The notes: generated by a model from the sequence alone, not told the origin. 64,000 nucleotides of DNA from Planctomycetia bacterium (GCA_036758585.1 DAIOWH010000001.1:98462-162461); one strand, 5' to 3'. Positions 2,273-47,441 are shown, counted from the first letter of the stretch. Numbers and translations: made by a program.

Positions 2273-5200
2273 ATGGCGAAAACGAAGGCGAAGCGACACC
2301 AGAAGTCGCGGCGGCTTGTTCATGGCAACTCGTCGCCAGGCGGATCGCGCCTTGGCTTTCTGGAGCGGCTTGAGTCGCGCGAATTGCTGAGCGATTTCCA
2401 GCCCGTCCAGGTTGGTTTCTCGTGGCTCACCCCCGGTCAGCCCACCGTCGTCCAATTCAATGCGGCAGGTCAGTGTCTGGGGGTAACGGGTCCGGCGGCA
2501 GGCGACCACGATGATTGTGCGATCGGCGACGTCGGCCCTGACCGCGTGACGATTCAATTCAGTCGCAACATCGATCGGCGCACGTTCAACGCCGCCGCAG
2601 ACGTCACGGTGACCGGCGATCTCGACGCGACCGATCCGTTTCGCGTGACCAGTGGCGTGGCGCGACGCCGCGTGGTTACTATCAACACGGCCGGCGACCT
2701 AGCTACAGGCGCCGACGCCAACCTGACGCTCGGCCTTCGCGACATCAAGGCGAAGGGCAAGTCGGGCGCCTGGCTCGATCCGTGGACGATGACGGTGAAC
2801 GTCAACTCGGACCAGCCGCCGGCGCCCGGCAACACGCCGCCGCGCGTCTTGAGTGTGACGCCCGCAGCGGGCGCCCAGTTGAACGAGTCGCCGAGTTTCA
2901 TCGAGGCATTGCTGAGCGAAGACCTCGACTCGCCGGGCCAGAATGGAATTCAACTCTTCGCCGCCGGGCCTGACGGCAATCTGGGCACGACCGACGACGT
3001 ACGAATCAATCCGAGGCGAGTGGACTACAGTGCGGCGACAGATACGCTGCGCTTCGTGGTAAACGGGCAAGTTGCAGACGGACTCTACCAGGCTCGGGTG
3101 ATGGGTTCGCTGCGTGACGGGGCCGGAAGCAGACTGGACGGCAATGGCGACGGGACGGCGGGCGACGACTTCGTTTGGACGTTTCGCGTTGCATCAGATC
3201 CCGGCGGCGGGCCTACTGACACAACCGCGCCGGGCGTCGTGAGCGTAACGCCGAACGCGGGTGCGACGCTCACGCAGTCGCCGAGCGTCATTGAGGCGAC
3301 GCTGAACGAGGATCTCGATCCGGCCCACTTGCCGGACCAGAACAGCCTTCAGCTTCACGCCGCCGGGGCCGACGGCAACCTCGGCACGGCCGACGACGTG
3401 CGGATCGTTCCGACGCGGGTCGAATACAGTGCCGCGACGGACGTCGTGCGGTTTGTGGTGAACGGTCAACTCGCGAACGGCGCCTATCGTGCTCGTCTCG
3501 TCGGCGACTCGATCCGCGACGCCGCCGGCAACCGCGCGGCCGATTACGCCTGGACTTTCGGCGTGAACGTGCCCACCAATCCACCACCCCCGGGCGACAC
3601 GTCGGCGCCGACGGTGGTCTCAACGAATCCGTCCCCGGGCGCGATCATTACGGAGCCCCTGACGGCGATCGACGTGGTCTTCAATGAAGACCTTGATCCT
3701 GCCACCGTGACGCCTGCCAACTTTGTGCTGAGCGCCAGTGGCGGCGATGGTACGTTCGGCGACGGCAACGAGACCACGATTGCGCCGCAGCGCATCGAGT
3801 ACAGCCCGGCGACCGACACCGGGCGGTTTGTGATCGGCTCGCGTTTGCCCAACGACCTGTTCCAGCTCATGCTCGTCGGCACTGCGTCGATTCGCGACTT
3901 GGCCGGCAACAAGCTGGACGGCGACCGCAACGGTTCCGGCGGCGACAACTTCACGGCCACGTTCAGTGTGGCGGTGGCGCCTCCTCCCGACTCATCGCCC
4001 GGCCCGCACAAGGACGTGCTCGGCGGCGATCCACCGGATGCCATCGCCGACGTGTTCCCAGGTGCGCCGACGCCGACGCTGGACATCAGCGCGATTTCAG
4101 GGTTCGCCGATCCGAACAACCTCTACATCAACGTGCGGTTCAATACGACGCCGCCCGGCACGACGATCGAGGCGCCGTCGGCCAGCGAGCCGAACTCGGT
4201 GTTCGGGTTCATTGACATCGACACCGACCAGGACTTGATCACCCCGAGCTTTCTGACGAACTTCGACCGGACCCCTGCGCCGATTTCCAGCACGCCGGGC
4301 GTCGGCATTGAGTTCGTGGTGGACATCGGTTCCGAAGCGAGGCACCCCGGCTCGGTTGACGTGTTGTACACAGACGAGAAGGTGCCGTTGGCAGGGAACG
4401 ACGATTTCGATTCGCGAGACGATCTCTATATCTACAGGCCGCTGACCGGCGAGTTCTTGATCGGGTTGAACAGCGGTGGTCAGCTTGGCACGGTGCTGGG
4501 CCCGTTCCAGTTCGGAGGCGTGGGTGAGACTCCGATTCTGGGCAATTGGGACCCCGACGGCGCCGGACCGTTGCGAGCGAACGGCGGCGACGACCTCGGC
4601 ACTTTCGACGCGACCACCAGCACGTTCAAGCTCGACCTCAACGACGATCGCCGGCTGGGTGAGGATCGCGACGGCGATGGACTGCTCGACCCGACCGAGG
4701 ACCTGAACAACAACGGGCAGCTTGACGTGGGCGAGGATGCCAACGGCAACGGGTTGCTCGACCTCAGCGAAGACCTGAATGACAATGGCGGGTTTACCGA
4801 AGACTTGAACGGCAACGGCCTGCTCGACCCGACCGAGCAGGACCTGAACAACAACGGCAGGGCCGACAATCTGGTCGACACCGAGACGTTTGTGTTTGGC
4901 TTTGCGGCGCCCGATCCCGCCGACCAGGTCTTGTTCGGCGACTGGGACGAAGACGGCGACACGGATATCGGCGTCTATCGCGCGGCGACAGGCGAATTCC
5001 TTCTCGACCTGAACGGCAACTACGAGATTGACGCGGCCGTGACCGATCCGATTCCCGAGCTTCCCTTCCGGTTTGGTCCGATATCGACGACGAACGTAGC
5101 CCTGGTGGGAGATTGGAACGCCGATGGCCGCACGGAAGTCGGTGTGTTCGTGCGGGGCGAGGACCTGAACGGCGATGGATTCTTCAACGACGGAACGGCT

Positions 5201-8200
5201 GCCCCGCTGTTGGACGAAGCCGCGGACGGAGTCGACTACAACGGCGATGGCGACGCGCTCGACCTGTTCAGTGAGGACCTGAACAACAACTCGATCCGTG
5301 AGGACGGCACCGGCTTCTTTTTCCTCGATCGAGACGGCGACCGTGTGCAGGATGCCAGCGAAGACGCGAACAATAACGGTGTGCTGGATCCGGGCGAAGA
5401 CAAGGACGAAGATCCGATCACTGCGGGCACGCAGGGCAACGCATTCCTGGACAACGATGGCCCATTCGCGTTTGGCTTGGCTACAGACAGCCCCGTGTTC
5501 GGGCAGTGGAGCGTTGTCGGTCGCGACGATATTGGCGTGTATCGCCAGGGGCTCGCCGGCGGCCAGTACATTCTGGATTACAACAGCGATCGCGCGGTGA
5601 GCGTGGGGGAGGGTCCGTTCGCGTTTGGCGGCGTGGGCGACCGACCGGTCGTCGGAGTGTTCAGTTTTGACGGCACCTCCCGCATGGGATCGTACACGCC
5701 GACCACGCGGGCTGGCACACGGATCGGCGGCGACCAGTTTTTCATCGACACGAACGGCGATCGCGCGGTGAGTCCTCGCGAAGGACCGTTCACGCTGGCG
5801 CCGACGGCTCCGATCGAGTTTCTGTTCGATAGTTTTACGGTCAAGCTGCCGCTCAGTCAGCTTGGCAACGACCCTGGCGGCATCGTGAACTTCGTTGCAA
5901 CGGTTGGGCCGTTTGCCGGTTTCAGCGACGAGGCGCCTGACCCGCCGCCGCCTCCGACCCCGCCCAACCCGCCTGTGCCCGGCACACCGGCCGCTAGCGG
6001 CGTCGCGGCGCCGCTGCGCGTCGTCGAACTCTCGTTCCCGAACGAGACAGCGTTTCGGTTGACCGAGCCGCTGGCGGACGCACTGCCCAAGAGCACCATC
6101 GCGATTCCCGGCACATCGGTGGTCGTGGGCACCGTGGGGTTGCAGGCCCGACTCGCCGGCGGCGATGCATCGCTGCAGTCGATTCTGGATCGCCGGTCGG
6201 TCGATGCCCGTACCGTCCTGCTCGAAGGTTCGGGCGGCGACGACGTGTTCGGCAACGGCAACGACGTTTCGATCAGCGCCAATCAAATAGTAGTTGGCAC
6301 CAGTCCGTCAGCGGCGTTGATCGGCAAGAGCAACGACACCATATTCTTCGACCTCACCGGCGTGGACCTGGGCGCCGATCTGTATCGGTTCACGCTGGTC
6401 GGCGACGACCCGATCCGCGACTTCCACGGGGTCCCACTCGACGGCGACTTCCTCGACGCCAACGGCGACGGCGCCTTGACCAACGCCGACTTGCCTTCGG
6501 GAAACGGTGTACCCCAGGGCGACTTCATCGCGACGTTCCGGCTGGACGCGCCGCCCGAGGTGATCAGCTTCCGCATGACCCGACCGACGGACCGCAACGT
6601 CGATCCGCTGGGCGCCGCGCCGAGCGACACGGGCGTCATCGGCGACGGAATCACCAACACGCGAACGCCCAACTTTGTGGGCGTGGTCAGCGACGATCGG
6701 CTTCCCATCATCGGCGACAATCCGGGCGACACGTTCGTCGCGGGCGGACAGTTTGACCTGTTCGAGGGCAGTGGCGAGTTCCTGGACGAAGACCTCAACG
6801 GCAACCAACTATTCAATGACGGGTCCACCGCGCCGCTGCTGGACGAGGCAGTGGACGGTGTCGATTACAACAACGACGGCGACACGGTCGACAGTGTGTC
6901 TGAAGATCGCAATGCCAACGGACAGTTCGATCGTACGATCTATCTAGGTCTGCGCTTCACGACGCCTGTGGACCTTGCGTCGTCTGGGGCGACCAACGCC
7001 GTGCGCGGGTTCATTGATATCGACGCCGATCAGGTTTCCGCCACGGGCGGCACAGGCTGGATCCGCGACCTCGACGGAGACCGAACTGAGGATTTCAGCG
7101 ACGGTATCGTGCATCTGGGCCGCGAGGGCGACGTGCCGATCGTGGGCCAATGGCTGCTTGGCGCCGGCGTCAATCCCACGGGCGACCGACTCGGGATCTT
7201 TCGTCCTAGTACGGGCGAGTTCTTCCTGGACCTCGATGGCGACGGTCGCTTCCTGCCCAGCGAAGACGCGAACGGCGACGGTGTATTCGACCCGTCTGAG
7301 GACCTGAATGGCAACGGTCTTTTGGACACTGAGGGCCCGTTCGCGTCGGGTGTGACGAGCGAAGACCTCGATGGCGATGGCGCGCTTGACCCGGGTGAGG
7401 ACGTGGACGGCAACGGAGTACTGGACGTCGCCGTGCCGGTGGTGGGTAACTTCTGCGCCGACAATCCGCAGACGGTCGCTGTGGAATGTCCAGGGACCGA
7501 GGTCGGCGTTTTCCGAAGCGGTCTGTGGACCATCGACCTGAACGGCGATCGGGAATTCGCGGACGGCAGCTTCACCTACGGTGCAGTGGGCGACATTGCG
7601 GTGGTGGGCAACTGGAACGGGCTGCCCGGCGACGAGGTGGGCGTCGTCACGCCTTCAACGGCGACGCTCGCGCCACGCTGGCTCTTGGACCGAGACGGCG
7701 ACACTTCGGCGGCGAACGATACGCCTTTCGAATACGGCACGGCCAATGATCAACAGATTCCGGTGGTGGGCGATTGGAGCGGCAATGGACGCACCAAGGT
7801 CGGCACCTACAGCCCACGGTTCTCGCAGTGGCGCATCGACATCAATGGCAACACCGTGCTCGAAGCCGCCGAAGGCCCGTTCGTGTTCGGCGACCCGCAA
7901 TCGCAGCCGGTCGTTGGCGACTGGAACGGCGACAACGCCGATGACATTGGCACATACAACACGTTCGGCCCGACGAACCAGGGGACCGGGCAGTGGTTCA
8001 TCGACGCCGACCATGTTGCGGGTACGACACCGACATTGACGTCGAACGACGGACCGCACCGGTTTGGACTGGTCGGCGAAGACCGCAACAACGATGGAGT
8101 ACTGCAAACGCTCGAAGACTTGAACGGCAACGACGCTATCGATCCGCCCGACCTGCCGATCGTGGGCAGGTGGGAAACGAATGGTCAGGCGGCGGCATCC

Positions 8201-11200
8201 GACCTGTTTGGCGTCTTTCGGCTGCGCGACGCTTCGCACGTGAACACGTTTGGGTTCACTACGTCGTTCAACATCGCGGGCCGGGCCGATTTGGGGATCG
8301 AGTACTTCGTCGATCTCGCATCCGAGTCCGGCGGAGTGGCGAACCTGGTCGACGCCCGAACGTCGCGGGTGGTGCAAGCCGTTCCAATTCGTCTGTTTCC
8401 AGACAGCCGCACCGTGATCGTCGACATACCGCTCGCGGCGATGCCCGAAGTTTCGGGTGGCCGTGTGACCTTTGGCGCGATCGTCGGGTCGGCCACGGAG
8501 TTCACGGATCAACTGCCCGAGTTGCCGCGTGCGGCCCAGAGCGCCGAGTCGCTTCAACTGGATTTTGCGACCGGCCAGACGCCCGGCTGCCGCACCGGAT
8601 CGGATGGCATCTTCAACGACGGGACAACGTTCACACGCGGGTTCGGCACGTTCACGCTACAGGTGCCGACCAGCGACCAGTTGTCGGAGACGGTGGTTGG
8701 ATGTCTCCCGAGCGTCGTGCGTGTGCGGGCCACCGACTTGTTCGACAAGGTCAATAACATCGTCAGCACGTCGATCGTCGATCGCGGCGTGCGGGTCGAT
8801 CTGACGCCGCCGCGGATCTATCGCGTGATTCCACCCGACAACTCCCAGGGCCGCGACGGGCCGCGCATCCTTCAACTCAATTTCAGTGAAGATCTGAACG
8901 GCAATGGCATCCTGGACCCCGGCGAAGACACCAACGGCGACAATCTGCTGAACAGCGACGATCTCGACCGCAGCACGGCCGAGCGGTCATCGAGTTATGA
9001 ACTGTTCCGCGCCGACGAGCAACCGTTCGAATCCGACTCCAACGAGTTGCGGCAGATCACCTACAACTCGGTGACCGACAGCGTGTCGATCACTCTGGGC
9101 GAGGGTCTGGATTCGGGGCACTATACGTTCGTGGCGTTGAGCCTCGGCGGCATAACCGACGTGGCCGGCAATCGACTCGACGGCGAACCGAACCCCGGCG
9201 CCCGGCCAGGTCAAGCGAACGTCTTCCCCAGCGGCGACGACGTCGCGGGCGGCGACTTCACGACTACTCTGTTGATCAACCAGGGTCCGCCCATCGTCAC
9301 CGCCGCGGCGGGTTCGGCAGGCCCGATCGTTCGTGCTATCTATGATCTGAACAACGAAGACATCAACGGCGACGGCGCGTTCGACGCGGGCGAAGACGTC
9401 GACGGAGACGGCACGTTCGATTTGGGCGACGCGCCCGCGCCGCCGCGCGAAATCGTCGTCACCCTGGATCAGCCGGTGATGCCTTCCAGCGTTCCACTGG
9501 ACCTGAACGGCAACGGGCGATTGGACTGTGGGCCCGACGGCATTTGCGGCACCGGCGACAGTGTGGACCTGAACGGCGACGGCGTCTTCGGACCGGGCGA
9601 CGGCGAAGTCGACGCCGACGGTGATGGAGACATCGACTTCAACGCATTGGACGAAGATACGAAGACCGTGTTCCTGACGCGCACGCGCACGGTCGACCAG
9701 ATTACCGGTCTGGTGTCGAGCATCGGCGACGGCGTTTTCGATCCGTTCTCGAATCGCGTGCTCGGGTTCGTCGAGGTAACGAACGACGGGCACACGCTGA
9801 CCTTCCATCCCAACCCCGAGTTCCTCGATCCGGACAACGACGGCGTGCAAGAGGGCCTGTTGGCGGACCACTACCGCTTCAGCCTGATGGGCGGCGGCAT
9901 ACTGCAGCCCGAACCGTCGGGGTTGCGCGACAACATCATCGTCAGTTGCGATGACTTCCGCAACGATCAGTTGACGCGCCTGGTGCCGGACACGGTCGCT
10001 CCGTCCTTGGCGTGTCGCACCGACAACCGCGACAACGGCCAGGCGCCGACGCCGTTCGACCCGTCGGGCTTCCAGACCACGACCGCCACCGACCTGTTCG
10101 TGACGAACACGCTGAATTCGCAAGGACCCGGTAATGTGTTGCTCACCGCTGTCGAGGACCGTGGCCAGTTGTTCAACGTGTTCGACGACGAGATCGCAGT
10201 CTATGTATCGAAAGATTCGGGCACGAGTTGGGCGAAGACGCCGTTTTTTGCGACCGATGCGGCCCGTACGATAGCCACGCCGGCCAGCCCGACAACGACA
10301 AGCGTCACCTTCGATATTGCCGTCCACCCCAGCGTGGCGTTTGACGCGCTCGGTACGGCGTACGTCGGCTACGCGCTGTACGATCTACCGAACGTCCCCG
10401 ACTTTACGCTGACCGGCGCCGATACTCGCTTCGACGCCGCCGATCGCGACGCCCTCGACACGGGCGGCGCGGTCTGTCAAGACTGCGCCGAAGTGGTAGA
10501 CGTCTTGGCGACCGCCGACGCCGCGACCTACGCGTTTGAGATCGGTTTTTCGCAGACAGTCACTCCGCCGAGCGAGAACGCACTGCGCCCGCTTTTTGGC
10601 CGGTTGGACATCGACTGCGATCGCGACGGCGGCGCCGACTTCTTCGCCGATCTCGCCAGCGAGAACTTCGACCCGGCCGTTGAGTCGCGGTTTGTCAACC
10701 TGCTTGTGGCCGCCGGCGTTAGCCCCGCGTGCAATCCCAGCAACCTAGCGCCCGGTTCGCTCGTGTCGCCTTCGATTCCCATCGATTATCTGGGCGACCG
10801 GGTGCGGTTGCGAGTTGCGCGGGAACTGGTGGACATGGATCCGCCGGTGCTGGCGGACTTCCGAGTTTTGGTCTCGCAGAGTGCGGGCGGTCCGGTGTCG
10901 GACGCCGCGCCCAACGCGGGCTTTACGGCAGTGCGCGACCGGCGTTTTCGTTCCAGCGCGGTCGCGCTTAGTCGATCGGTGGATGTGGTCACGGCCCCTT
11001 CTGGGTCAGCGGTGTTTCAGTCGCCGATTCCGGCGTCCTTCCACTTCCACGAAGACCTTAACGACAACGGCGCGAACGATGCCGGCGACATAGACGTCGA
11101 CGGCGACGGTCAAATCACACAAATGACGTTCGTGGATCTTGACCCGTCCATTGCCGTGGACAAGACCCGCATATACTCGGACCGTGCGCGGACGCCTAAC

Positions 11201-20077: not shown

Positions 20078-20130
20078 ACGCGACAGAGTCTTGCCTCGGG
20101 GTGTTCCTGGGGCCGTGGAGATGGCAAACG

Positions 20131-31206: not shown

Positions 31207-31590
31207 TTGGAGGGTAGAAACTTGGCTAAGGAAACCAGTACAGCGGTCGAAGAACAACCAGCTCCTGCGGAACAGACCCAGCAGCCCGCTCGGGCCGTCC
31301 AAACCGAGGTGGTTGTAGACGAGGCCAGCGCCCACGCGGCCTATGCAAACTTCGCTCGGGTCACGGCGACCCCCGAAGAGGTGATCGTCGACTTCGCCCT
31401 GAACCCCCAGCCGTTCGCCACCGGTCGGCAAGAAGTCAAGGTCTCGCAGCGACTGATCATGAACTTCTACACCGCAAAGCGACTGTTGGGCGCGTTGCAG
31501 ATGACGATCCAACGCCACGAATCGGCGTTTGGCGCAATTGAGTTGGACGTACGGCGCCGGGCGAACATCCCAGCTACGGGCGCTCGCTAG
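31207..31590 (+). CDS. DUF3467-family small protein
   Basis: 127-aa ORF (TTG start in the track; the true start may be slightly downstream). YANFARVTATPEEVIVDFALNPQ...VSQRLIMNFYTAKRLLGALQ matches the DUF3467 pattern YSNLA.I.HS.SEFVLDF...R...TP.HAKRLL.AL recalled from Bacteroidetes/PVC proteins. Confidence 0.55.
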   Translation: MEGRNLAKETSTAVEEQPAPAEQTQQPARAVQTEVVVDEASAHAAYANFARVTATPEEVIVDFALNPQPFATGRQEVKVSQRLIMNFYTAKRLLGALQMTIQRHESAFGAIELDVRRRANIPATGAR

Positions 31591-31597
31591 GTTGCCA

Positions 31598-31622
31598 AAG
31601 CGGGCGGATTGAACGCCCGCTT
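31598..31622 (+). terminator. GC-rich hairpin (AAGCGGGCG-gattgaa-CGCCCGCTT) immediately 3' of the DUF3467 gene, followed by a second hairpin at about 31646-31690. Candidate factor-independent terminator without a U-tract
   Basis: Perfect 9-bp stem read from the sequence 8 nt after the TAG stop. There is no T-run, so assignment as a terminator is tentative. Confidence 0.3.
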
Positions 31623-31930
31623 GAAGTCAAAAATCCCGGCCGGACCTCGGCGGTAGCTGCCGCCGAGGGCCGGCTTGATTACGAGGTCGGTACAGAGAGG
31701 ATGCACGTGGGGAGCGACCGGAATCGCCGCGAGTCCTGCACATCTTGGGATTCTCGCTGGTTCTGTGAGGCACACACTCCGGGGGGGAGTGTGTGTGGAT
31801 AGTCGCTGTCGGTGGCTTTTGCTGTGGCCTTACGCTCCACCGTCCACTTGCACGCCGATGGAACCGAGGCATGAGCCGTCGCAGAGAGGGAGGCCACATT
31901 GTGGGCCAGGACGGCACTAAGTACTGCTCG

Positions 31931-32064
31931 ACATTGAAAGGGGTTCGTTTAACCCGCAGCCGCAGGCGAGGCACAACAAACGCCAGCCATGCCTCGCCTG
32001 CGGCTGCGGGTTAAACGACCGAAGCCGATTTCAGACCCCTATTCAATGCGACACAGTACTAAGC
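31931..32064. repeat. Palindromic intergenic repeat element, copy 1 (core stem TTTAACCCGCAGCCGCAGGCGAGG / CCTCGCCTGCGGCTGCGGGTTAAA, 20-nt loop, outer imperfect inverted repeats CATTGAAAGGGG.../...CCCCTATTCAATG)
   Basis: Stem arms at 31948-31971 and 31992-32015. About 85-90% identical over ~130 bp to copy 2 (44393-44554). The core stem is shared with copy 3 (57903-57984). Confidence 0.8.
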
Positions 32065-32214
32065 TTCAGGATTCCGCACCGACCATCTGACGAGATTGAC
32101 GGACAGACCCAGGAAAACACGGCGACCCCACAGACCGCCTCCGGCGTTGACGGTTTGCCGTTTCGCCGATGTCTCAAGGACGGTCTGATTTCGGTTGGTG
32201 TAAGGAGAAAGAGG

Positions 32215-35200
32215 ATGCGCAAGGCAAGACTGAAGCCCCGAGGGACCGAACGAAACAAGTGTTTTCTCGGCGCGATCGAACGTCTCGAAGACCGTTGTTT
32301 GCTCGCACCAGTCATGGTGACGGGCACTTCCTATCAGCCGATGATCGGCTCCGCTACGTTTGCCGACGACGGGTTCGTCAGTTTCCGCTTGATCAGCACA
32401 CAGGCCGGCCGTATCGAAGCTGATCCCACAGGAGCGTTTGGCAACGATCTATTCGTTGTCTCACGGGGCACAGCCGTGGGGACCGGTGGGTTGGTTCCAT
32501 CGGGGGCGAACCCAGGCGACCTCGCGGGCAATATCTATCGCATCGACCCGTACGGCGCCAATGCGTTCGGCGCGTCGCCCGCGGACAACCGACGGCTCTT
32601 CGCGACCATTCCCGGCGGGGGCTCCTCGTTCGGTGGATACGAAGACTGGTTCGACATTGCGTTCGATTCTACCGGCAACTTCACCGGTAGCCCGTTGCTG
32701 AACGGCGCTGGCCCGACAATGTTCGTCAGTTCGTTGGACTCTACCACCACACCGGGAATCAACCCGCGCAACGCCATCTATGCGTTTCTGACCAATGGCG
32801 ACTTGGCGGCGCCGGCCGGCGTACCGCTGAATCCCGGACGGGTCACCGCGTTTTCGACCTTGGACGTCGTCCAACCAGGCATCCTGGACAGTCAAATCGG
32901 TGCGATCGCGGTGGCGCCGGGCGACACATTCGGCCGCGACCTGTATGTGCTCGACGTCGCATGCGATAACGCCGTGGGCGTCACCTGCGCCGCGGGCGAC
33001 GGCAACTCGATGTTCCGAGTCCGTCCCGTGCAGGCCGATCCGGTCGACCTTGATGCCTCGGCGCTTTTCAGCGGCCACGTAGAGGGCGTGTTGCCAACCT
33101 TGGCGCCCGCGCCAGCCAACAACGACATCGACGTACGAGCGATGGTGTTCGATCCTAACCGAGGCATCATCCTGCAAGGCCAGTTCGGTGGACCAGCGTT
33201 CCAGTTGTATGGCGGACTGTTCGTAGCGTCGAGTGACCTGGAGGCCAATGACACTGCGCTCACTCGCGTGCTGCATTTCCCGTCGCCTGGCTCGCCGCCC
33301 CTGGATGTCGTTGCTCCGGCGGCGATCGCCACTCGGCTGATCGGCGACATGACGTTCGATCCGGTTGGCTATTTCGGCGGCGGCCTCTTCTTCACGGACT
33401 ATATCAGTCGCTCGGTTCAACAAATCACGCAAGATCCGGCCACGGGGTTGGCGACGATCACTACGATAGCCAACAACTTCAACGTGTTGACGCCCACGGA
33501 CTTCACCGGTGTGACACCGCCTGGCGATGATCCGGCCGACGCCTATCGCGATGCCTTCTCCATTAGTTTCTCGGCCGACGGTGAGATCTTGTTCGTTTCC
33601 GACCGCGACGGCGTTTGGGCGTTCTACGCCAACACGCTAGCGCATTCTTCGTCCGGCACGGCGATCGGCCTTACCGACCTGCGCGAGCTGCGAGCGCCCT
33701 ATTCGGGCGAGGGCCTGGCGGCCGCCGTCGTCGACACCGGCGTCGACGGCGCCCACCTCGGATTCCGCGGCACGGTCACCGCCGGTTTCAACCCGGCGTT
33801 CCCCGGACCCGGCAACTTCGACACCAACGGCCACGGCACAGCCGTGGCCGGAATCATCCACCAGATGGCGCCGGGCGCGCTGGTCGTTCCGATCAACACG
33901 TTGGGCTTCGGTTTCACGAACCAGGACCTCTACAACTCCGTGCGCTTCGTCCGCGACAATCCGTTCGCCGACGACCCGCGCACCGCGGCCGTCGAGGCGG
34001 TTCCGATCGTCGCGGTCAACATGTCGCTAGGCATCCGTGGGCTCGGCGACCCCGACAACGCACTGGACAGCGATGCGGAGGCCGTGGCCACAGACCAGTC
34101 GATCGCCATCCCGCTCAAGGCCATCTTCCAGGACTATCGCACAGTGCACCCGCTCGGCATCGTGCCTGTGGGATCTGCGGGCAACGAAGGCGACCTGTTC
34201 AACGGTATGAGCGGCAGCATCATTCCATCGATTCTGAATGAAGTGGTGGAAGTGGGAGCAAGCTATCCGTTCGGGCCTGCCGTGGCCGGCACGGCAGGCA
34301 CAACGGCTTCGGGCCTGACGCCGCCGCTAAACTTGACGGGCAGCCTGCGCTGTCAGGTGTTGTCGACCGGCACGGCGCAGGATTTCATCGCCTTCCCGGG
34401 AAAGCTGGCGGCGTTTTCGAACCGGAACGTCACCACGGACATGATCGCCCCGGGCACATGCGTGAGTTCCTTCGGAGTATCCCTGTTTGACAGCTCGCTG
34501 GTCGCGTCGGCCCAGGCGGTGCGCACAGCTCCCATCATGCCAGCCTTTGACGGCACCTCGGCGTCGGCGCCCCTCGTGACGGGGAGTTTTCTGTTCGGCT
34601 ACGACGTTGTTGCGCAGTGGGCGGAAGTGCTCGGCGCCGGCGGCGCCATCGCACCCGACTCGGCCGACCAGACGATTCGCCGACTGAACCAGTACCTGAC
34701 GCGCGAGATTACCTTGCCGGGCGTGACGGCGCCGACCATCACGCTCGGCGGCGTCGTGCCAGCGAACATCGCGGAGTATCTGAATCCGGACGGCGTGAAT
34801 TCCATCCTGCAGTGGACGGCGATCCCACGTGAAGACGTGAACATCGGCGCGACGTTCGACGCGCCGGCCGGCGTCGATGACAGCGTGGAACAGGAACGGG
34901 CGTTCAACAGCCATCGCTATCGCGTCTATTCGCACGTAAACATCGCCAACGCGCTGGCCGCGGTGGAAGGGACGATCGCGCTGAACTTCTTCGTCGCCAA
35001 CCCGGCCGCCCTCGCCGCGCTCGACGCCGCCGCCGGCACGCCCGGACTGATCACCGCCGTGGACATCGACACGTTCGTGGCCGACCCGCTGCAATTGGCC
35101 AGCGCTCGCGCCATGGCCCGGCTGCTCGGCGGAACGGGCCGAGTCGCGCGGCTCAATCGGCTTGCGTACCTTGATCTCGTCCAAGACGCTGTGCAGAACG

Positions 35201-36636
35201 GCGGCATCTTCACGGCGACGATCGCCGATTTGGCCGACCGCTTGCTCCCAGAACCGACCGACTTCCGCATCACCGCTCGTGCGGCCAGTGCGGATATTCC
35301 ATACGCCCTGGACCCGACGGCGATTCGGGCCTACCAGGCGCTCAAGTTCCGACCGGACGACATCTTCCGCGGCATCACCAAGAAACTGCGCCGCATGTCG
35401 CCCGATGAATTCACGTTTGGCTCGCGCGGCGCCGCCGGACTGCGGCTGCTCCCAATCACGGGCGCCGATGAACGCAGAGTGATGCAACCACGGCTGAGTA
35501 TCGTCGGCCGGGCTGGCGACGTTCCGCCCCCGCCTATCGACGAAATCTGCGGCGATAATATCGACAACAACGGCAATGGCCTGGTGGACGAGGGCTGTCC
35601 GCCCCCGCCACCCCCGTCAACCGACGCCAGCAACAACTTCGTGGCGATGGACGAAGCCGGCGCCGAGTACATCTACAGCACCAACTCGATCGGCGACTTG
35701 CTGGAGTACGCGCGAGCAGCCGACGGAACGTGGTCGCTCACGAACGTCTCCGACGGCACCACCGCGCCGGACGTCTGCTGTGACTTGCTGGCCCTCGATC
35801 GGCCCGGCGGTTCCACTCGGACCGTCTTCGCGCTCGACGCCAACGGACACGTCGTGCGTTTCGACCGCAACGGCGAGTCGTGGTCGACCAGCGACATGAC
35901 CGGTCAGAACCTGCCGGCCCTGACGAACAGTCTTACGGGCTTGGTGATGCAGGTTCGCGGCGTTGAGTCTGTGCGGCTGTACGGTTTGAACGGCATAGGT
36001 CACCTCATCGAGTACCGTCCGGCGCGGGTTGGCTACATCGCTCGCGACGTCACCGCCGAGACGCGCGGCCCGATCCTGCAGCCGGGGCTGGCGAGTTGGG
36101 GCGAAACCGTTCGCAACAAGGACCGCATCTACGTCTACGGGGTCAGCGCCGCCGGCACGGTCGAGCAATACACCTGGACCGGCCGACGCTGGGTGCGACT
36201 GAACCTGACCGCGCTGGCCGGCGGCCCGGCGGTTGCAGCGGGAAGCTTGGCGGTTCCACCGCGTCCACCCACAGGCCGCGGCGCGGCGCCCGGCGTCTTC
36301 GCGCTCGACAACCAAGGCAGCCTGTGGCACTTCTTCGGGAGATGGGAGTCGGTGACCGCCGTGGCTGGCAGCGACGCGATTGTCGGTGAGCTGGCGGTTC
36401 AATACGACGCCACGGACGCAGTCTCACACGTGTACGGCCGCAATGCCCAGGGCGGGTTGGTGCGGCACAGTGGACGACTCGGCAGTTGGACGAGCGACGT
36501 ATTGGTGGACTCTGGCGTGGCTGCGGGCGCTGACTTGGCCGTCTCCACTGGCAACCAGGCGACATACGCCGAGCTGGTGGATGGCGCGCTGGCCGAGTTC
36601 TGGTTCGATGACGGATGGTCTCGCCTGCTCCAGTAG
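32215..36636 (+). CDS. Large extracellular subtilisin-like (S8) serine protease-domain protein (about 1473 aa) with IERLEDRCLL N-motif, MopE-like Cys/Asp motif and a C-terminal 7x Trp-containing propeller-like repeat domain
   Basis: The track start of 32155 is probably too long. ATG 32215 is preceded by AAGGAGAAAGAGG. Catalytic-triad motifs VVDTGVD (33727-33741), NGHGTAVAG (33826-33840) and GTSASAPLVTG (34552-34575). ICGDNIDNNGNGLVDEGC at 35548-35598. The C-terminal ~330 aa holds 7 repeats of the form VFALD..GHLI.Y...G.W....D.T. Confidence 0.85.
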   Translation: MRKARLKPRGTERNKCFLGAIERLEDRCLLAPVMVTGTSYQPMIGSATFADDGFVSFRLISTQAGRIEADPTGAFGNDLFVVSRGTAVGTGGLVPSGANPGDLAGNIYRIDPYGANAFGASPADNRRLFATIPGGGSSFGGYEDWFDIAFDSTGNFTGSPLLNGAGPTMFVSSLDSTTTPGINPRNAIYAFLTNGDLAAPAGVPLNPGRVTAFSTLDVVQPGILDSQIGAIAVAPGDTFGRDLYVLDVACDNAVGVTCAAGDGNSMFRVRPVQADPVDLDASALFSGHVEGVLPTLAPAPANNDIDVRAMVFDPNRGIILQGQFGGPAFQLYGGLFVASSDLEANDTALTRVLHFPSPGSPPLDVVAPAAIATRLIGDMTFDPVGYFGGGLFFTDYISRSVQQITQDPATGLATITTIANNFNVLTPTDFTGVTPPGDDPADAYRDAFSISFSADGEILFVSDRDGVWAFYANTLAHSSSGTAIGLTDLRELRAPYSGEGLAAAVVDTGVDGAHLGFRGTVTAGFNPAFPGPGNFDTNGHGTAVAGIIHQMAPGALVVPINTLGFGFTNQDLYNSVRFVRDNPFADDPRTAAVEAVPIVAVNMSLGIRGLGDPDNALDSDAEAVATDQSIAIPLKAIFQDYRTVHPLGIVPVGSAGNEGDLFNGMSGSIIPSILNEVVEVGASYPFGPAVAGTAGTTASGLTPPLNLTGSLRCQVLSTGTAQDFIAFPGKLAAFSNRNVTTDMIAPGTCVSSFGVSLFDSSLVASAQAVRTAPIMPAFDGTSASAPLVTGSFLFGYDVVAQWAEVLGAGGAIAPDSADQTIRRLNQYLTREITLPGVTAPTITLGGVVPANIAEYLNPDGVNSILQWTAIPREDVNIGATFDAPAGVDDSVEQERAFNSHRYRVYSHVNIANALAAVEGTIALNFFVANPAALAALDAAAGTPGLITAVDIDTFVADPLQLASARAMARLLGGTGRVARLNRLAYLDLVQDAVQNGGIFTATIADLADRLLPEPTDFRITARAASADIPYALDPTAIRAYQALKFRPDDIFRGITKKLRRMSPDEFTFGSRGAAGLRLLPITGADERRVMQPRLSIVGRAGDVPPPPIDEICGDNIDNNGNGLVDEGCPPPPPPSTDASNNFVAMDEAGAEYIYSTNSIGDLLEYARAADGTWSLTNVSDGTTAPDVCCDLLALDRPGGSTRTVFALDANGHVVRFDRNGESWSTSDMTGQNLPALTNSLTGLVMQVRGVESVRLYGLNGIGHLIEYRPARVGYIARDVTAETRGPILQPGLASWGETVRNKDRIYVYGVSAAGTVEQYTWTGRRWVRLNLTALAGGPAVAAGSLAVPPRPPTGRGAAPGVFALDNQGSLWHFFGRWESVTAVAGSDAIVGELAVQYDATDAVSHVYGRNAQGGLVRHSGRLGSWTSDVLVDSGVAAGADLAVSTGNQATYAELVDGALAEFWFDDGWSRLLQ

Positions 36637-36750
36637 CGACGAACGTCAGACCCGCCTCGGGTTCGACCGGGGCGCAAGTGGGGCGTAGTACGACGGATGC
36701 AATGGATTGCCCGTGAGTGTGATACTTCGTGTGAAGTGGAGGCGATAAAC

Positions 36751-39700
36751 GTGTCGACGCCAAAGAGAAACCGAGGCCGGCTGACATTTCGGGCCGGTGT
36801 GGAACGCCTCGAAGTTCGCGAACTGCTCACCAGCACGTTCCTCGAGGGCCTTGCGGCGGCTGATTCGGCCGGGACCGCGCTGGCGCCGCTAGGAAACATC
36901 TTTGACGACGCACCGGCCAGCCTGGTCGGTGCGGATTTCGCGATTGGAGCGCCGCTCGCGAGCGCCCGCGCGGGCGAGGTTTACGTCGTCTTCGGACACG
37001 CAGGACTTGACACCGCCACGCTCAACGGATGCCTCACGCCGCTGCCTGTCAGTCCGCGCGGGCCGAATTGCGAGCTGATCAACAACTTGCTCACAACACA
37101 GCGCGCGATTCGTATCGTCGGCGATTCGGCCGACGACCTGGCGGGCTATTCGGTGGCAGGGGTTGGCGACGTGGTCGGCGACTCGCGCCCCGACCTGCTG
37201 ATCGGCGCGCCGTTCGCGCGGAACGGAGCCGCAGTGCAGACGGGTCGCGCGTACCTGATCGGCGGCGACTACATCGCCAACGTGATCGGCACGGCCCGCG
37301 CGGCGGGCGGCGCCGCTGTCGGCACCATCGATCTCGGCTCACCCGCATTGGGAGCGACCTTCCGCATCATCGAAGGCGAGTCGGCCGACGACCAGATGGG
37401 TAACGGCGTCGCAGGCATAGGCAACGGATTCTTCATGACCAGCTCGCCGTTGTTTGGCGCCGCGCCTTTCGAGGACCGCGGCAAAGTTTACGTTTTCGGC
37501 GGCTTGCGCGGCATTGCCGGACCGGGCGCCGCGCTGGTGCCACTGGCGACCGTCGTCGGTCCATCGGACGGCGCACACCTGGGCGGGGTACCCGCCGAAG
37601 AACTGACCACAACAGGGTTCAAGGGCCAAGCGATCTCGCCGCTACGCAACCCAGCGCTCATTCCGGTCGCCAGCGAATCACCGAGCGACCGGCGTTACCG
37701 CGTGCTCAGTACAACGTCGCCCGATGTGTTGTTGGGCGCGCCCGACGCCTGCACGGTCAACACCTGTACGCCGGCCACAGCCGTGCGACACGGCCGTGCC
37801 TACCTGCTTTCGGGAACCCAACTGATCGGCGTTGGCGGAAACTTCGACCTCTCAGTCCAAGCGGACTTGCAGGCGCTTGAGGCGATCATCGTACAGGGTG
37901 GGTCACCGAACGATCGACTCGGCGCGGCCGTCAGCAGCGCGGGCGACTTCGACGGCGACTTCGACATCGACACGACCGGCGACGGACTCCCGGACGGCAA
38001 GAGCGACTTCATGTTCGCCTCTCCGGGGCGCGATGTGACCCAGAGTGGCCTGACCGAGACCGATGCCGGCGAAGTGTATCTGATCTTCGGACGCGAGGTG
38101 AACGGTACTCCATTCCCCGACGGTAGCTGCCAAAGCGACCCGGGCATTGTCGGCGTACCGCAGATGAACTTCCGACAGTGCCGCGACGCCGCTGGCAACA
38201 TCGTGCCGCTCACCGCGACTAACTTCGTGGTGGCTGGGAACCTGACTGGCCTGACGCTGCGCGGCGCCACCACAACAGAACAACTAGGTACGTCCCTGAG
38301 CGAAGGTGGAAACTTCAGCGATCCGACCGGCAGAGGCAGCGCGGGCTTGTCGGGTCAGGTCGGCGTCAGCGACATTCTGGTCGGTGCGCCGTTCCACGAC
38401 GTACGCACCGGCGCCGTCACGGTGCTGGCCGACGCTGGCCGCGCGTACGGCATGTTCGGCAGTCGTGACTATCGCACCATCTCCGGCCAACTGCGCGACC
38501 TGGAACTGATCGGCGCCACCGGCGAGGGGATCATCTTCAACGGCCGTTTCGCGGGCGACAACTACGGCATCGCCGTGGCCGCCGCTGGTAACGTGGGCGA
38601 CCCCACCGGGCTGATTGGCGACGATGTACTGTTCGGCGCACGCAACGCCGAGGCCGTTCTGGGCGGCGCGGCAACAAACAACGTCGGGGAAGTCGAGTTG
38701 TTGTTTGGGTCGACTTCAGGGGCCGCCGGAGCGGGTGGGGTCGTCTCACTGCTCCCCTTTGTGCAGCCTGGGACATTTGGACCGCAGATTTTTGCCGGTG
38801 GATACTGGTCGTTCATCAACCAGACCCCGCCGGCCGGCAGCGTGAATCAGTTCCCGCTCGTGGCGAGTCAGCCGAGCGACGACCTGTTGTTCCCGCCGTT
38901 CACGCCCAGCATCCTGCCCGCCGGCGCGGTGGGGCCGTTCATTCCCGCTACGCTGCGCGGCTCGACGATCTTCTTGCCCGATCGGCCGCTCGCGCTGGTC
39001 GATCGTTCGGGCAACCTGAACGTCTACGATCGTGCCAGCGGCGACCGCGGCGTCAACGTCACCGCGTCCGCGCGAGGACCCAGGATTCGAGCTGGAGCCG
39101 TTGCCAGCGCCGCCGACGGCGCAACCAGTGTGTTCGCACTCGATCAGGCCGGACACCTAATTCACCACCGCGGCAACGGCACAAGCTGGTCGGCGACCGA
39201 CCTGACGCAAGGCTCCAGTGGACCCAGCCTCACCGGCAACCTCGCGGTGCGGCGCATCGACGGCGCGAACGATTCGTTCGTGATCAGCGGCCGGGCCGCA
39301 TCCGGCGGCGTCGCCGTCTACGCGGGCAACGATTCCGACGGCTGGCGGTCCGCCGTGTTTACGCCGCCCGGCGGCGCCGGCGCATCGACGGCCGTGACGC
39401 CACCCACACTCAGCGCGAACTATGTGGTCGGCAGCAACGGGCACCTGATCGAGTACATGCCGTCGCGGCGCAAGTGGCGGACAACGGACATCAGCGCGGC
39501 GGCCGGCGGACCTCAGCTTGCCGGCGACGTCGCGGCCAACGTTGTGCTCGGCGGCCCGCTTCGCGCCGTGCTCGAAGTGTTTGCGCGAAGCGTCGATGGA
39601 CGCCTCATCCGTTTCACGCGAGCCGGGCGGAGCTGGCAGTTCGAGGACATCAGCGAGCGGCTGGCCGGCGCGGGCGCCATCGACGGTTCGATGATCGTCG

Positions 39701-40011
39701 TGCCCGGTTCGCTGGGTCAGCGGTTCATCTACGCACAGTCAGGCGGCCGTATCGTTGAAGTCGCAGGCGACGGCGCCGGTTGGCGAGTGCAGGAACTTCC
39801 GGCGGTGGACGGCGTAGCCTCGATGGTCGGCCCGATCGCCGCGATGCCGACCAATGGCAACTCACGTGTCGTCTACGGTTACGAATCGGGCGGCTCGGTT
39901 GTCGAGTACAGCTTCAACGGAACTTGGACCACACGCTCGTTCTCAAGCGACGCCACGGCGCTGGGCGCATTGCTCGACCTACTGACTGACTTGGGTGTCC
40001 AAAGCCGCTAG
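36751..40011 (+). CDS. FG-GAP (integrin-alpha-like) repeat protein (about 1087 aa) with VERLEVRELLT N-motif and the same C-terminal Trp-containing propeller-like repeats as the preceding gene
   Basis: The probable start is GTG 36751 (VSTPKRNRGRL...), 8 nt after GGAGG. The track start 36697 is an upstream in-frame extension. FG-GAP units (GADFAIGAPLASARAGEVYVVFG; DLLIGAPFARNGAAVQTGRAYLIGG; ..DFMFASPGRD..GEVYLIFG). C-terminal repeats GHLIHHRGNGTSWSATDLT / GHLIEYMPSRRKWRTTDIS / GRLIRFTRAGRSWQFEDIS. Confidence 0.8.
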   Translation: MSTPKRNRGRLTFRAGVERLEVRELLTSTFLEGLAAADSAGTALAPLGNIFDDAPASLVGADFAIGAPLASARAGEVYVVFGHAGLDTATLNGCLTPLPVSPRGPNCELINNLLTTQRAIRIVGDSADDLAGYSVAGVGDVVGDSRPDLLIGAPFARNGAAVQTGRAYLIGGDYIANVIGTARAAGGAAVGTIDLGSPALGATFRIIEGESADDQMGNGVAGIGNGFFMTSSPLFGAAPFEDRGKVYVFGGLRGIAGPGAALVPLATVVGPSDGAHLGGVPAEELTTTGFKGQAISPLRNPALIPVASESPSDRRYRVLSTTSPDVLLGAPDACTVNTCTPATAVRHGRAYLLSGTQLIGVGGNFDLSVQADLQALEAIIVQGGSPNDRLGAAVSSAGDFDGDFDIDTTGDGLPDGKSDFMFASPGRDVTQSGLTETDAGEVYLIFGREVNGTPFPDGSCQSDPGIVGVPQMNFRQCRDAAGNIVPLTATNFVVAGNLTGLTLRGATTTEQLGTSLSEGGNFSDPTGRGSAGLSGQVGVSDILVGAPFHDVRTGAVTVLADAGRAYGMFGSRDYRTISGQLRDLELIGATGEGIIFNGRFAGDNYGIAVAAAGNVGDPTGLIGDDVLFGARNAEAVLGGAATNNVGEVELLFGSTSGAAGAGGVVSLLPFVQPGTFGPQIFAGGYWSFINQTPPAGSVNQFPLVASQPSDDLLFPPFTPSILPAGAVGPFIPATLRGSTIFLPDRPLALVDRSGNLNVYDRASGDRGVNVTASARGPRIRAGAVASAADGATSVFALDQAGHLIHHRGNGTSWSATDLTQGSSGPSLTGNLAVRRIDGANDSFVISGRAASGGVAVYAGNDSDGWRSAVFTPPGGAGASTAVTPPTLSANYVVGSNGHLIEYMPSRRKWRTTDISAAAGGPQLAGDVAANVVLGGPLRAVLEVFARSVDGRLIRFTRAGRSWQFEDISERLAGAGAIDGSMIVVPGSLGQRFIYAQSGGRIVEVAGDGAGWRVQELPAVDGVASMVGPIAAMPTNGNSRVVYGYESGGSVVEYSFNGTWTTRSFSSDATALGALLDLLTDLGVQSR

Positions 40012-47432: not shown

Positions 47433-47441
47433 CTTGGCTGG

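Follow-up and report, generated by a model that had tools for sequence, protein, structure and literature searches.

How planctomycetes bring proteins of megadalton size through a diderm envelope to the surface in the absence of ordinary signal peptides is a question that dates from 2004, when the motif was described, and it is raised again by a locus in a metagenome-assembled genome of a Planctomycetia bacterium. The locus gives no answer to it; what it offers is four co-directional genes with a common N-terminal motif, and we think it probable that these encode giant secreted or surface proteins on which a diverged form of a known planctomycete leader serves for export, sorting or anchoring.

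The window analysed here is the whole 64,000-nucleotide stretch of DNA, and its features are collected in Table 1. A first-pass annotation had put the extent of the four genes at about 37.7 kb, or about 59% of the window, which is correct (37,739 bp). It had also described them as a contiguous set, which they are not, because genes 1 and 2 are cut off from genes 3 and 4 by a DUF3467 gene and by a strong palindromic hairpin. The four genes are arranged in tandem as two pairs, with spacers of 53 bp in the first (genes 1 and 2), 114 bp in the second (genes 3 and 4) and 1.2 kb from gene 2 to gene 3. The first pair consists of paralogues (43% identical over the N-terminal 180 aa, E 9e-38), and the two genes of the second have a C-terminal all-beta domain in common. 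The DUF3467 gene is a fifth gene within the span that had been overlooked. The palindromic element contains a 28-bp perfect stem (fold energy -69.4 kcal/mol, z -10.5) and is found in a second copy; metagenome contigs end at this element.

Table 1. Genes, leaders and repeat elements of the locus, in positions counted from the first nucleotide of the window.
Feature	Position	Motif position	Strand	Basis or sequence
Gene 1, giant protein	2273..20077		+	ORF, 5934 aa
Gene 1 leader	2273..2389	2360-2389	+	MAKTKAKRHQKSRRLVHGNSSPGGSRLGF + LERLESRELL
Gene 2, gene 1 paralogue	20131..31005		+	ORF, 3624 aa
Gene 2 leader	20131..20247	20218-20247	+	MTNATGKRFGAARRLGRTRPTLRARHAGQ + VERLESRELL
DUF3467 gene, between genes 2 and 3	31207..31590		+	Pfam PF11950, 81 bits
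Palindromic repeat element, between DUF3467 gene and gene 3	31935..32070		.	Repeat family D10 and alignment
Gene 3, predicted subtilase with leader	32215..36636		+	ORF, 1473 aa
Gene 3 leader	32215..32304	32275-32304	+	MRKARLKPRGTERNKCFLGA + IERLEDRCLL
Gene 4, predicted integrin-alpha-like FG-GAP protein with leader	36751..40011		+	ORF, 1086 aa
Gene 4 leader	36751..36828	36799-36828	+	(M)STPKRNRGRLTFRAG + VERLEVRELL
Palindromic repeat element, second copy	about 44388-44538			

As had been noticed at first sight, all four ORFs open with a K/R-rich segment, after which comes [LIV]ERLExRxLL. When the six-frame translation of the window was searched with the regular expression [LIVMF]ExLExRx[LVIM][LVIM], exactly four matches were obtained, all of them at the four N-termini, and the motif DNA pattern is non-random (4 matches vs 0.00 expected from 100 dinucleotide-preserving shuffles). 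Codons vary among the four copies (GAG/GAA, CGG/CGC/CGT, CTT/CTC, TTG/CTG) and the residues are constant. The motif begins at aa 18-31 and is preceded by 5-8 K/R and 0-1 D/E per gene; a Pro follows 2-6 residues past LL[S/T/A] in genes 1-3, with none in gene 4. Three unrelated downstream sequences (gene 1/2, gene 3 and gene 4) sit behind the motif, and the leader is a portable module that does not depend on the passenger domain. In the gene 4 product as modelled by AlphaFold, leader residues 1-27 have pLDDT values of 22-42 and no secondary structure, and the fold begins at aa 28.

Planctomycetota accounted for 27 of the 119 sampled genome matches, and an N-terminal, K/R-rich, long-ORF context was found in 15 of these 27 vs 4 of the 92 from other phyla (Fisher p = 1e-8); the motif is strongly enriched at long-ORF N-termini in Planctomycetota. 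It is also conserved in orthologues at the protein level. Full-length orthologues of gene 4 (33-82% identical) all retain it at aa 16-28, L20, E21, R23, L25 and L26 are invariant across 14 gene 4 orthologues, those of gene 3 retain it as FDRLEERCLLAPV, LERLEERCLLAPT and FDHLEDRQLLSPI, and, for the N-terminal domain of genes 1 and 2, 10 of 10 representatives (among 1.84 billion proteins) have the motif or a D-variant. The likeness of the four N-termini could merely reflect gene duplication or mis-called starts, with no signalling function, given the paralogy of genes 1 and 2 and the domain common to genes 3 and 4. We consider this extremely unlikely, and it is already contradicted by the unrelated post-motif sequences, by the invariance of the motif in orthologues whose flanking leader residues vary freely, and by the presence of the same ERLExRxLL core at the N-termini of unrelated long ORFs from many planctomycete orders. 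Moreover, an in-frame stop 30 codons ahead of the motif makes an earlier start of gene 1 impossible, and the public gene calls, which are independent, agree with the first-pass annotation on the starts of genes 2-4.

That the longest planctomycete proteins bear a novel export signal has already been proposed (Studholme 2004; Mahajan 2021, PMC8567305). The Pfam family PF07595 (Planc_extracel) comes from the work of Studholme, Fuerst & Bateman (2004), with proteomics by Mahajan (2021, PMC8567305); its consensus has been published as RRLxxExLExRxLLA (PMC8567305), and the literature terms this motif class a presumed signal. In Tuwongella immobilis, 8 of the 10 longest proteins have the motif, and 20 of 52 carriers were seen by proteomics, 8 of these 20 solely in the SDS-soluble fraction (PMC8567305; PMC3343278; PMC10952558).

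The identity of our motif with Planc_extracel, which had been put forward earlier, stood in part. The core ExLExRxLL of the published consensus is exact in all four genes and lies behind basic residues in the first ~50 positions, in a planctomycete host and on extracellular-type passengers. However, a search with the PF07595.18 HMM (20 positions, gathering threshold 25.5 bits) gave no match to the four N-termini even at E<=10, whereas consensus peptides used as a control scored 31-38 bits, and the NCBIfam model NF012209 (LEPR-XLL, cutoff 17 bits) did not match them either. The consensus RRL is missing or one residue out of register in the four genes, and the residue after LL is the consensus A in gene 3 only, being S/T in genes 1, 2 and 4. 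Natural planctomycete N-termini with an ERLExRxLL core scored 29.0, 23, 19, 17.9, 14.4 or 12.4 bits on PF07595, or nothing; the highest score, above the cutoff, belongs to Rhodopirellula maiorica, and a Schlesneria protein with ...IERLEPRLLLS passes NF012209 with 19.1 bits. Because N-termini with the same core run from 29 bits to nothing, the motif of the four genes is, as far as sequence can tell, a sub-threshold variant of the known planctomycete class and not a formal member of the model. A PSSM made from nine classic-motif seeds, all independent, places only three of the four sites in the top 7 of 88,464 positions, and the gene 2 site falls outside the top 10. Most of the pattern, though genuine, had been described before, and the idea of an export tag is not new. 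Genome surveys relying on PF07595 and NF012209 would undercount the cargo, because both models miss real leader variants.

The four proteins had been said to lack classical signal peptides, and a simple hydropathy measure (Kyte-Doolittle 12-mer) agrees with this. The peak value in the first 110 aa was 0.82, 0.97, 1.50 and 1.55 for genes 1-4, and 2.16, 2.07 and 1.88 within the first 25 aa of three neighbours in the window that carry obvious Sec signal peptides. By this measure, the hydrophobic h-region of ~7-15 residues that follows the n-region in Sec/SPase I signals is absent from the four N-termini. The Tat motif S/T-R-R-x-F-L-K with its h-region was not found in them either, RR being present in genes 1 and 2 only and outside a Tat context. 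Nor is a signal peptide hidden upstream: an earlier start of gene 1 is impossible, and in the case of genes 2-4, the upstream in-frame sequence has no hydrophobic stretch. Among 115 FG-GAP homologues, 20 have only the motif, 53 only an h-region and 1 has both, and the leader and the Sec h-region appear to be mutually exclusive in this set.

These data bear on the possibility that the leader is an unusual Sec signal, in which SecA/SecYEG would read the basic n-region and the Leu-rich box, a conventional outer-membrane step coming after. Like Sec and Tat signals, the leader lies at the extreme N-terminus and has a positively charged n-region, it occupies the site at which homologous passengers from other phyla have ordinary Sec signals, and the pair of DUF3467 and gene 3 homologues has SecA two genes upstream in Singulisphaera (a single case). 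We nevertheless regard this as very unlikely: unlike those signals, the leader has neither an h-region nor a Tat motif, its maximum 12-mer hydropathy is 0.8-1.55 vs 1.9-2.2 in the controls, 3-4 residues of its box are charged, and the motif excludes h-regions and is associated with RTX-type proteins.

The bodies of the four proteins had been described as extracellular-type modules, and Pfam bears this out for Big_5, Beta_helix/NosD, DUF1565, Peptidase_S8 and FG-GAP, although not for BNR/sialidase or metalloprotease domains. Gene 1 contains Big_5 Ig-like domains (120 bits), 13 EF-hand/TSP3-like Ca-binding loops (repeat family D1) and a C-terminal beta-helix (Beta_helix/NosD) that is followed by an acidic C-terminal tail. 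The sialidase-like activity that had been suggested finds no support, as a sialidase requires several BNR repeats in a six-blade propeller and catalytic residues and gene 1 has only two SxDxGxxW strings, 634 aa apart, with no BNR/sialidase match in Pfam and no sequence match in the PDB. Gene 2 contains Big_5, Big_13 and DUF1565/beta-helix domains together with two PPPP-CGDxxDNDGDGxxDEGC modules. The metalloprotease that had been suggested is a metzincin candidate in gene 2, with one HEAGHVLGQRH string (pattern HExxHxxGxxH) at aa 1044 and weak PDB matches to EcxA and a snake venom metalloproteinase (E 0.17-0.54); no Pfam metalloprotease domain was matched.

In the case of gene 3, the earlier assignment to a subtilisin-type protein is supported, and its product is predicted to be a subtilase of family S8. 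It scores 56.7 bits on Pfam Peptidase_S8 (cutoff 21.8) and matches subtilisin BPN' in the PDB (E 9.5e-6), and the catalytic triad is intact, with D507, H540, N657 and S782 all present in the motifs VVDTGVD (at 507), HGT (at 540), SAGN (654-657) and GTSASAP (780-786). It also has one CGDxxDNNGNGxxDEGC module, a Cys/Asp-rich type in common with gene 2. Gene 4 encodes, in this order, the leader, an FG-GAP beta-propeller (aa 28-650; Pfam FG-GAP 41.4 bits), a disordered linker, a second all-beta domain and a C-terminal helix, LLDxLADLGxxSR, that is conserved in orthologue tails. Its AlphaFold model (mean pLDDT 67) matched integrin alpha5 headpieces in Foldseek (E 2.5e-14 for 7nwl_A; target-normalised TM up to 0.68 with shorter alpha5 chains), and the FG-GAP repeats with a 7-blade beta-propeller fold support a putative integrin-alpha-like propeller.

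The DUF3467 protein is very highly conserved: it has 2263 homologues, and among the 120 best clusters listed identity lies mostly at 60-99%, with 50% as the lowest value. Its gene is at the same position in the relatives L122, L123, L124 and L125, syntenic with the gene 3 family. The order of the gene set is conserved in distant relatives: giant-DUF3467-S8-FG-GAP is kept in L122 and L124 (39-53% identity), and DUF3467-S8-FG-GAP in L123 (33% identity), which has no giant genes. This conserved order suggests related function; a single operon or a single complex is not thereby demonstrated. One operon whose products (adhesin and proteases) co-assemble into a single surface machine, with the leader for joint delivery, would fit this order, the short spacers within the pairs, the modules common to genes 2 and 3 and to genes 3 and 4, and the multi-protein 'planctosome' proposed for other planctomycetes (PMC6461901). 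We find it rather unlikely, as genes 2 and 3 are parted by 1.2 kb with another gene and a -69 kcal/mol hairpin, the giant genes are missing from L123, unrelated genes come after DUF3467 in other genomes, and cohesin/dockerin domains had no Pfam match in the four proteins. The likeness to the 'planctosome' (Andrei et al. 2019, PMC6461901) lies in the idea of a surface assembly with TSP3-repeat scaffolds and metallo- and other peptidases, whereas in that system the signal peptides are ordinary ones of 26 aa and cohesins pair with dockerins. The conserved giant-DUF3467-subtilase-propeller order makes this a defined small locus for genetics.

In the reading that we favour, that of a diverged leader on giant secreted or surface proteins, the leader has ~28-40 residues, with a basic n-region of 17-30 residues and then the box [LIV]-E-R-L-E-x-R-x-L-L-[S/T/A] at the place of the hydrophobic core of a Sec signal, and the folded passenger would begin straight after it. 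Such a leader would tag proteins for export, sorting or anchoring beyond the cytoplasmic membrane. This role is supported indirectly by the proteomic fractions of T. immobilis, by the exclusivity with Sec h-regions and by the extracellular-type folds. A search for secretion-system genes drew a blank in the window and in the 6 kb ahead of it. The exclusivity of leader and h-region and the association with RTX, both from one homologue set, make a type I-like or a novel route the direction for experiments.

A type I-like, C-terminus-dependent export, with the N-terminal motif as a retention, anchoring or processing module that remains at or within the envelope, as in LapA-type adhesins, seems unlikely to us. 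Sizes of 3600-5900 aa are typical for T1SS adhesins. Acidic amphipathic C-terminal tails are conserved in genes 1, 2 and 4 and their orthologues, and RTX (PF00353) is found in 5 of 21 motif-bearing, 12 of 41 signal-less and 0 of 53 Sec h-region homologues of gene 4 (p = 0.0013). Furthermore, a Vibrio protein of ~8000 aa that has RTX and serralysin domains at its C-terminal end bears the LEPR-XLL leader class (PMC10868602). Against this, PF00353 is absent from the four proteins in Pfam, the window and the 6 kb upstream contain only an ABC-2 type transporter and no HlyB/HlyD/TolC-type genes, and other motif-bearing planctomycete ORFs have no consistent C-terminal motif. A bolder reading is that the LExRxLL leader, replacing a hydrophobic signal core, never occurring with one and going with RTX-type (type I-like) cargo, defines a separate pathway of non-Sec export or anchoring for giant envelope proteins of planctomycetes, and that the DUF3467-subtilase-propeller cassette belongs to the same system, for example in processing or tethering of the giants; this is in our opinion unlikely.

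Compared with known systems, the window proteins resemble giant T1SS RTX adhesins (LapA, SiiE, MpIBP) in size, in a repetitive Ig-like/Ca-binding architecture without a Sec signal, in their acidic C-terminal tails and in the co-occurrence of the leader class with RTX in homologues; they differ in having neither RTX nonapeptide repeats nor adjacent T1SS genes. With NF012209 ('LEPR-XLL domain-containing protein', LEPR-8K) they share a short N-terminal L-E-x-R-x-L-L box on very long proteins, although their boxes have S, D or V where the model box LEPRxLL has P, and that model also takes in non-planctomycete giants such as the Vibrio RTX protein (PMC10868602). The likeness to PF07595 lies in a planctomycete host, an N-terminal position after basic residues, the core E-x-L-E-x-R-x-L-L, and large multi-domain proteins with Ig-like domains, Ca-binding TSP3-like loops and FG-GAP, the differences being the absent or shifted RRL, S/T for A in three of four genes and the lack of an HMM match. 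Finally, the 'Planctomycetes-specific signal peptide' of T. immobilis, LxLExLExRxxP (Mahajan et al. 2021, PMC8567305), ends in xxP, whereas the window variant ends in LL[S/T/A]. Both would be lineage-specific variants that the Pfam model alone does not recover, and the T. immobilis carriers, found in membrane and cell-wall fractions, include proteases and Ig-domain proteins, as do the predicted passengers of the window.

The N-termini of the four giant genes of the window (genes 1-4) share a leader, made of a K/R-rich stretch and a box of the ERLExRxLL type, that is real and clearly non-random, and the motif reads as the first-pass annotation had written it. The expression [LIVMF]ExLExRx[LVIM][LVIM] matches the six-frame translation of the window (63% G+C) at these four N-termini and nowhere else, and the degenerate DNA pattern for the motif occurs four times against the 0.00 expected from shuffles. 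The four copies keep the same residues with different codons, which indicates a constraint on the protein level. The starts of genes 2-4 agree with public gene calls (exact-sequence look-up), and the named near-identical or 90%-cluster relatives belong to Planctomycetia, Gemmataceae or Planctomycetaceae MAGs. Of the four sites, three ranked in the top 7 (of 88,464 positions) with a PSSM version of nine classic-motif seeds; an HMM from these seeds was underpowered for long six-frame fragments, and a homologue search with the four leaders of 32-45 aa, too short for the method, gave 37 word-sharing candidates and no matches.

Features of the locus and its surroundings, with positions in the window
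Feature	Position	Strand	Description
Gene 1	2273-20077	+	ORF, 5934 aa; motif match at 2360
Gene 2	20131-31005	+	ORF, 3624 aa; motif match at 20218
DUF3467 gene	31207-31590		PF11950, 81 bits
Gene 3	32215-36636	+	ORF, 1473 aa; motif match at 32275
Gene 4	36751-40011	+	ORF, 1086 aa; motif match at 36799
Palindromic element	31935-32070 and 44388-44538		Intergenic, two copies of ~135-150 bp, ~82% identical over the aligned stretch
Acidic amphipathic C-terminal tails	19900-20077, 30850-31005, 39950-40011		Conserved within families
Ca-binding loops, gene 1	4630-9600, 18560-19700		13 loops
Ca-binding loops, gene 2	26053-26300
Ca-binding loop, SdrD_B-like ORF	59120-59166		One loop; ORF at 58-59.6 kb
Cys/Asp-rich module	20695-20867 and 35524-35615		Genes 2 and 3; 76-77% DNA identity
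VWA-TPR protein and TPR protein	41509-44259 and 40094-41662	-	Next to gene 4, on its 3' side
tRNA-Arg(TCT)	47359-47433	+
ThuA-DUF7133-cytochrome c fusion	49791-54500	-	1569 aa; classical signal peptide

Ahead of the motif each leader carries 5-8 K/R and 0-1 D/E, and the top Kyte-Doolittle 12-mer within residues 1-110 reaches 0.82, 0.97, 1.50, and 1.55 in genes 1-4, respectively. These values are all below those of three neighbouring genes that have obvious Sec signals within their first 25 residues and were used as positive controls, a VWA protein (MSKAIWRRGVVLGLLAMGAASLVA, 2.16), a GH2 (MLSQTLILLSAIGISPASA, 2.07), and the ThuA-DUF7133 protein (MRNLSRAVTVTTLLLLGGATLAWS, 1.88), the last of which has a typical planctomycete architecture. 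A longer N-terminus of gene 1 is excluded by a stop 30 codons 5' of its motif, and no hydrophobic stretch was found in the in-frame sequence upstream of the starts of genes 2-4, which in the case of gene 3 passes through a palindromic repeat. At the level of hydropathy, the earlier claim that these proteins have no classical signal peptide is supported.

All full-length gene 4 orthologues (33-82% identity) have a basic leader and [VLA]E[RHL]LExR[EQ]LL[ST] at residues 16-28; in the alignment of this family (n=14) L20, E21, R23, L25, and L26 are invariant and the n-region is freely variable. Gene 3 orthologues retain FDRLEERCLLAPV, LERLEERCLLAPT, and FDHLEDRQLLSPI. The 190-aa N-terminal domain common to genes 1 and 2 is rare, with 10 representatives in 1.84 billion proteins (three of them of 6449, 6125, and 3762 aa), and all ten present the box or a variant with D (FDQLETRELLS) at residues 30-55; with the gene 1/2 N-terminal alignment as query, metagenome contigs yielded 267 pattern matches and no tblastn-confirmed relatives. 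Because the sequences that follow the box in the gene 1/2 domain, gene 3, and gene 4 are unrelated, the box is portable, a module that belongs to no single domain. In the AlphaFold model of gene 4 (mean pLDDT 67), residues 1-27 are without secondary structure (pLDDT 22-42) and the integrin-alpha-like propeller starts at residue 28.

We also sorted the N-termini of 115 FG-GAP (propeller) homologues of gene 4 by motif and Sec-like h-region. The motif alone is found in 20 and the h-region alone in 53, a single protein has both, and the remaining 41, truncated or typical signal-less proteins, have neither. RTX repeats (PF00353) are present in 5 of the 21 motif-bearing proteins and in none of the h-region-only class (p = 0.0013), and in 12 of those with neither. 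These class counts and the RTX distribution indicate that the leader acts like an alternative to a Sec signal, alongside type I-like cargo, and support the view that leader-bearing proteins would not be Sec substrates. The RTX association would also agree with an export that depends on the C-terminus, the leader being a retention or anchoring module, and so would the conserved acidic amphipathic C-terminal tails of genes 1, 2, and 4 and their orthologues. However, we consider this explanation improbable: the four window proteins have no PF00353 matches, neither a T1SS (no ABC/MFP/TolC set) nor another secretion gene set was found beside genes 1-4 in the window and 6 kb upstream, where there is only an ABC-2 transporter, and the other motif-bearing planctomycete ORFs have no C-terminal motif in common. 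The acidic tails might be a second sorting signal. They read (E/D)W..(L/I)D.LL(E/D)..G plus a basic tail in the gene 1 family, EWTTLIDSWLDDEG in gene 2, and LLDxLADLGxxSR at the extreme end of the gene 4 family; a C-terminal motif common to all motif-bearing proteins was discarded, since it held consistently only within the families of gene 1/2 and gene 4. Three FG-GAP homologues (P0080, P0125, and P0131) present another variant at the N-terminus, IEPLE(P/T)R(V/I)APA, and share a conserved C-terminus of their own, GDF(F/R)(V/L)xE(V/I), a pairing that may point to matched sets of N- and C-terminal tags.

Genes 1 and 2 are 53 bp apart; a small DUF3467 gene follows gene 2 after 201 bp and precedes gene 3 by 624 bp, and 114 bp separate genes 3 and 4. 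Conservation of DUF3467 is very strong: it has 2263 homologues, and most of the best 120 clusters listed show 60-99% identity. The order giant (4045 or 4145 aa)-DUF3467-S8 subtilase-FG-GAP is found in two metagenome contigs, with gene 4 orthologues of 53% and 39% identity, and DUF3467-S8-FG-GAP occurs at 33% identity with the giant absent. In Singulisphaera, a distant homologue of gene 3 (28% identity, E 1e-52) comes after DUF3467 and carries a degenerate box, LLEEKCLLAPV; two other genomes have PSCyt2/PSD1 genes 3' of DUF3467 instead. The recurrence of this order in relatives indicates a conserved neighbourhood, suggesting a functional link at least among DUF3467, gene 3, and gene 4. Of the contiguous operon-like set that had been proposed the conserved order stands, but a single operon is unlikely, as DUF3467 and the 624-bp gap with its palindrome lie before gene 3. 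In the Singulisphaera sp. GP187 locus (L125, 4689-15632), SecA and then a KdtA-like glycosyltransferase precede DUF3467, and an oppositely oriented 164-aa gene stands between DUF3467 and the distant homologue of gene 3; SecA close to DUF3467 is seen in this single genome only.

The core of the palindromic element, whose first copy lies in the gap between DUF3467 and gene 3, is a 28-bp perfect stem (-69 kcal/mol, z -10.5). It corresponds to no Rfam family, the sole Rfam match in the window being a tRNA, and was not found in the loci of related species. Metagenome contigs of the same population end at this element. One of them, the near-identical L001, has genes 3-4 apparently without genes 1-2 and beside other genes; we rejected it as evidence against adjacency, since the other contig of its sample ends at ~32071 of the window, within the palindrome, and the two overlap exactly at the element, which we read as an assembly break at the repeat.

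Upstream of genes 1-4 there are a dihydroorotate-dehydrogenase-like gene and the ABC-2 transporter, and downstream TPR, VWA-TPR-(weak STN), SpoIIE, and HAMP genes. The VWA-TPR protein has a classical signal peptide and a weak STN (secretin/TonB N-terminal) match, of 22.8 bits against a cutoff of 28.4; together with the TPR gene it adjoins genes 3-4 also in L001, of the same species, and not in distant relatives. The similarity of L001 (99.9% identical) to the window stops at 47437 and is followed by a phage-type integrase, suggesting a strain-variable integrated element at the tRNA-Arg(TCT).

Genes 1 and 2 are paralogues: identity over the first 180 aa is 43% (E 9e-38), other segments match as well, some of them in a different order, and the last ~600 aa are related. 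Together they contain Big_5/Big_13 Ig-like and beta-helix/NosD/DUF1565 domains, and EF-hand/dockerin/TSP3-like Ca-binding loops (EDxNxNGxLDxGED) are found in many copies in them and, once, in a separate SdrD_B-like ORF. As to the activities ascribed to the set, a sialidase in gene 1 is unsupported, with two isolated SxDxGxxW strings only, and a single metzincin-type string, HEAGHVLGQRH, occurs in gene 2, for which PDB sequences (EcxA and a snake venom metalloproteinase, E 0.17-0.54) give only marginal support. The subtilisin assignment holds for gene 3, a subtilase with complete catalytic residues. In gene 4 the propeller is followed by a second all-beta domain common to gene 3. A Cys/Asp-rich module flanked by prolines, PPPP-(V/I)CGDN(V/I)DNDGDGxxDEGC-PPPP, which we take to resemble MopE-type metal-binding motifs, is common to genes 2 and 3.

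The motif had also been likened to Pfam Planc_extracel (PF07595), which proved right in kind, in core, position, host, and cargo, but without a formal match to the model. The ExLExRxLL core is exact in all four proteins; PF07595.18 (20 positions, cutoff 25.5 bits) gave 31-38 bits on consensus peptides written by us and nothing at E<=10 on the four leaders, which were likewise missed by NF012209, the NCBIfam LEPR-XLL model and the second curated model for this kind of box. Among the matches listed when species-representative genomes were sampled with a DNA pattern for ERLExRxLL, 27 of 119 loci belong to Planctomycetota (Pirellulales, Planctomycetales, Isosphaerales, Tepidisphaerales, and Phycisphaera), and a leader context (K/R-rich, at most 80 codons from a stop, and on an ORF of 250 aa or more) was found in 15 of these 27 versus 4 of the 92 from other phyla (Fisher p = 1e-8). 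Ten natural planctomycete N-termini from this sample scored 29.0, 23, 19, 17.9, 14.4, and 12.4 bits with PF07595, four giving no match, and one from Schlesneria (…IERLEPRLLLS) was above the NF012209 cutoff with 19.1 bits. These graded scores put the window leaders at the far, most diverged end of a gradient covered by two narrow models: they are non-members by the thresholds and, judged by consensus, position, host, and cargo, of the same class.

The novelty is modest and concerns the failure of both models on leader variants of this sort, the mutual exclusion of leader and Sec h-region with the RTX-type association in one homologue set, and a DUF3467-subtilase-propeller cassette conserved next to giant genes. 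PF07595 has been handled as a signal-peptide family in other papers (PMC3343278, PMC10952558). A lineage variant, LxLExLExRxxP, is found on 52 proteins of Tuwongella immobilis, including 8 of the 10 longest, and 8 of the 20 carriers detected in proteomics were solely in the SDS-soluble fraction (PMC8567305). A special export route for genes 1-4 would be the same hypothesis already in the literature, which this locus neither proves nor refutes, and their motif belongs, in a diverged form, to a known class whose link to giant surface proteins of planctomycetes goes back two decades.
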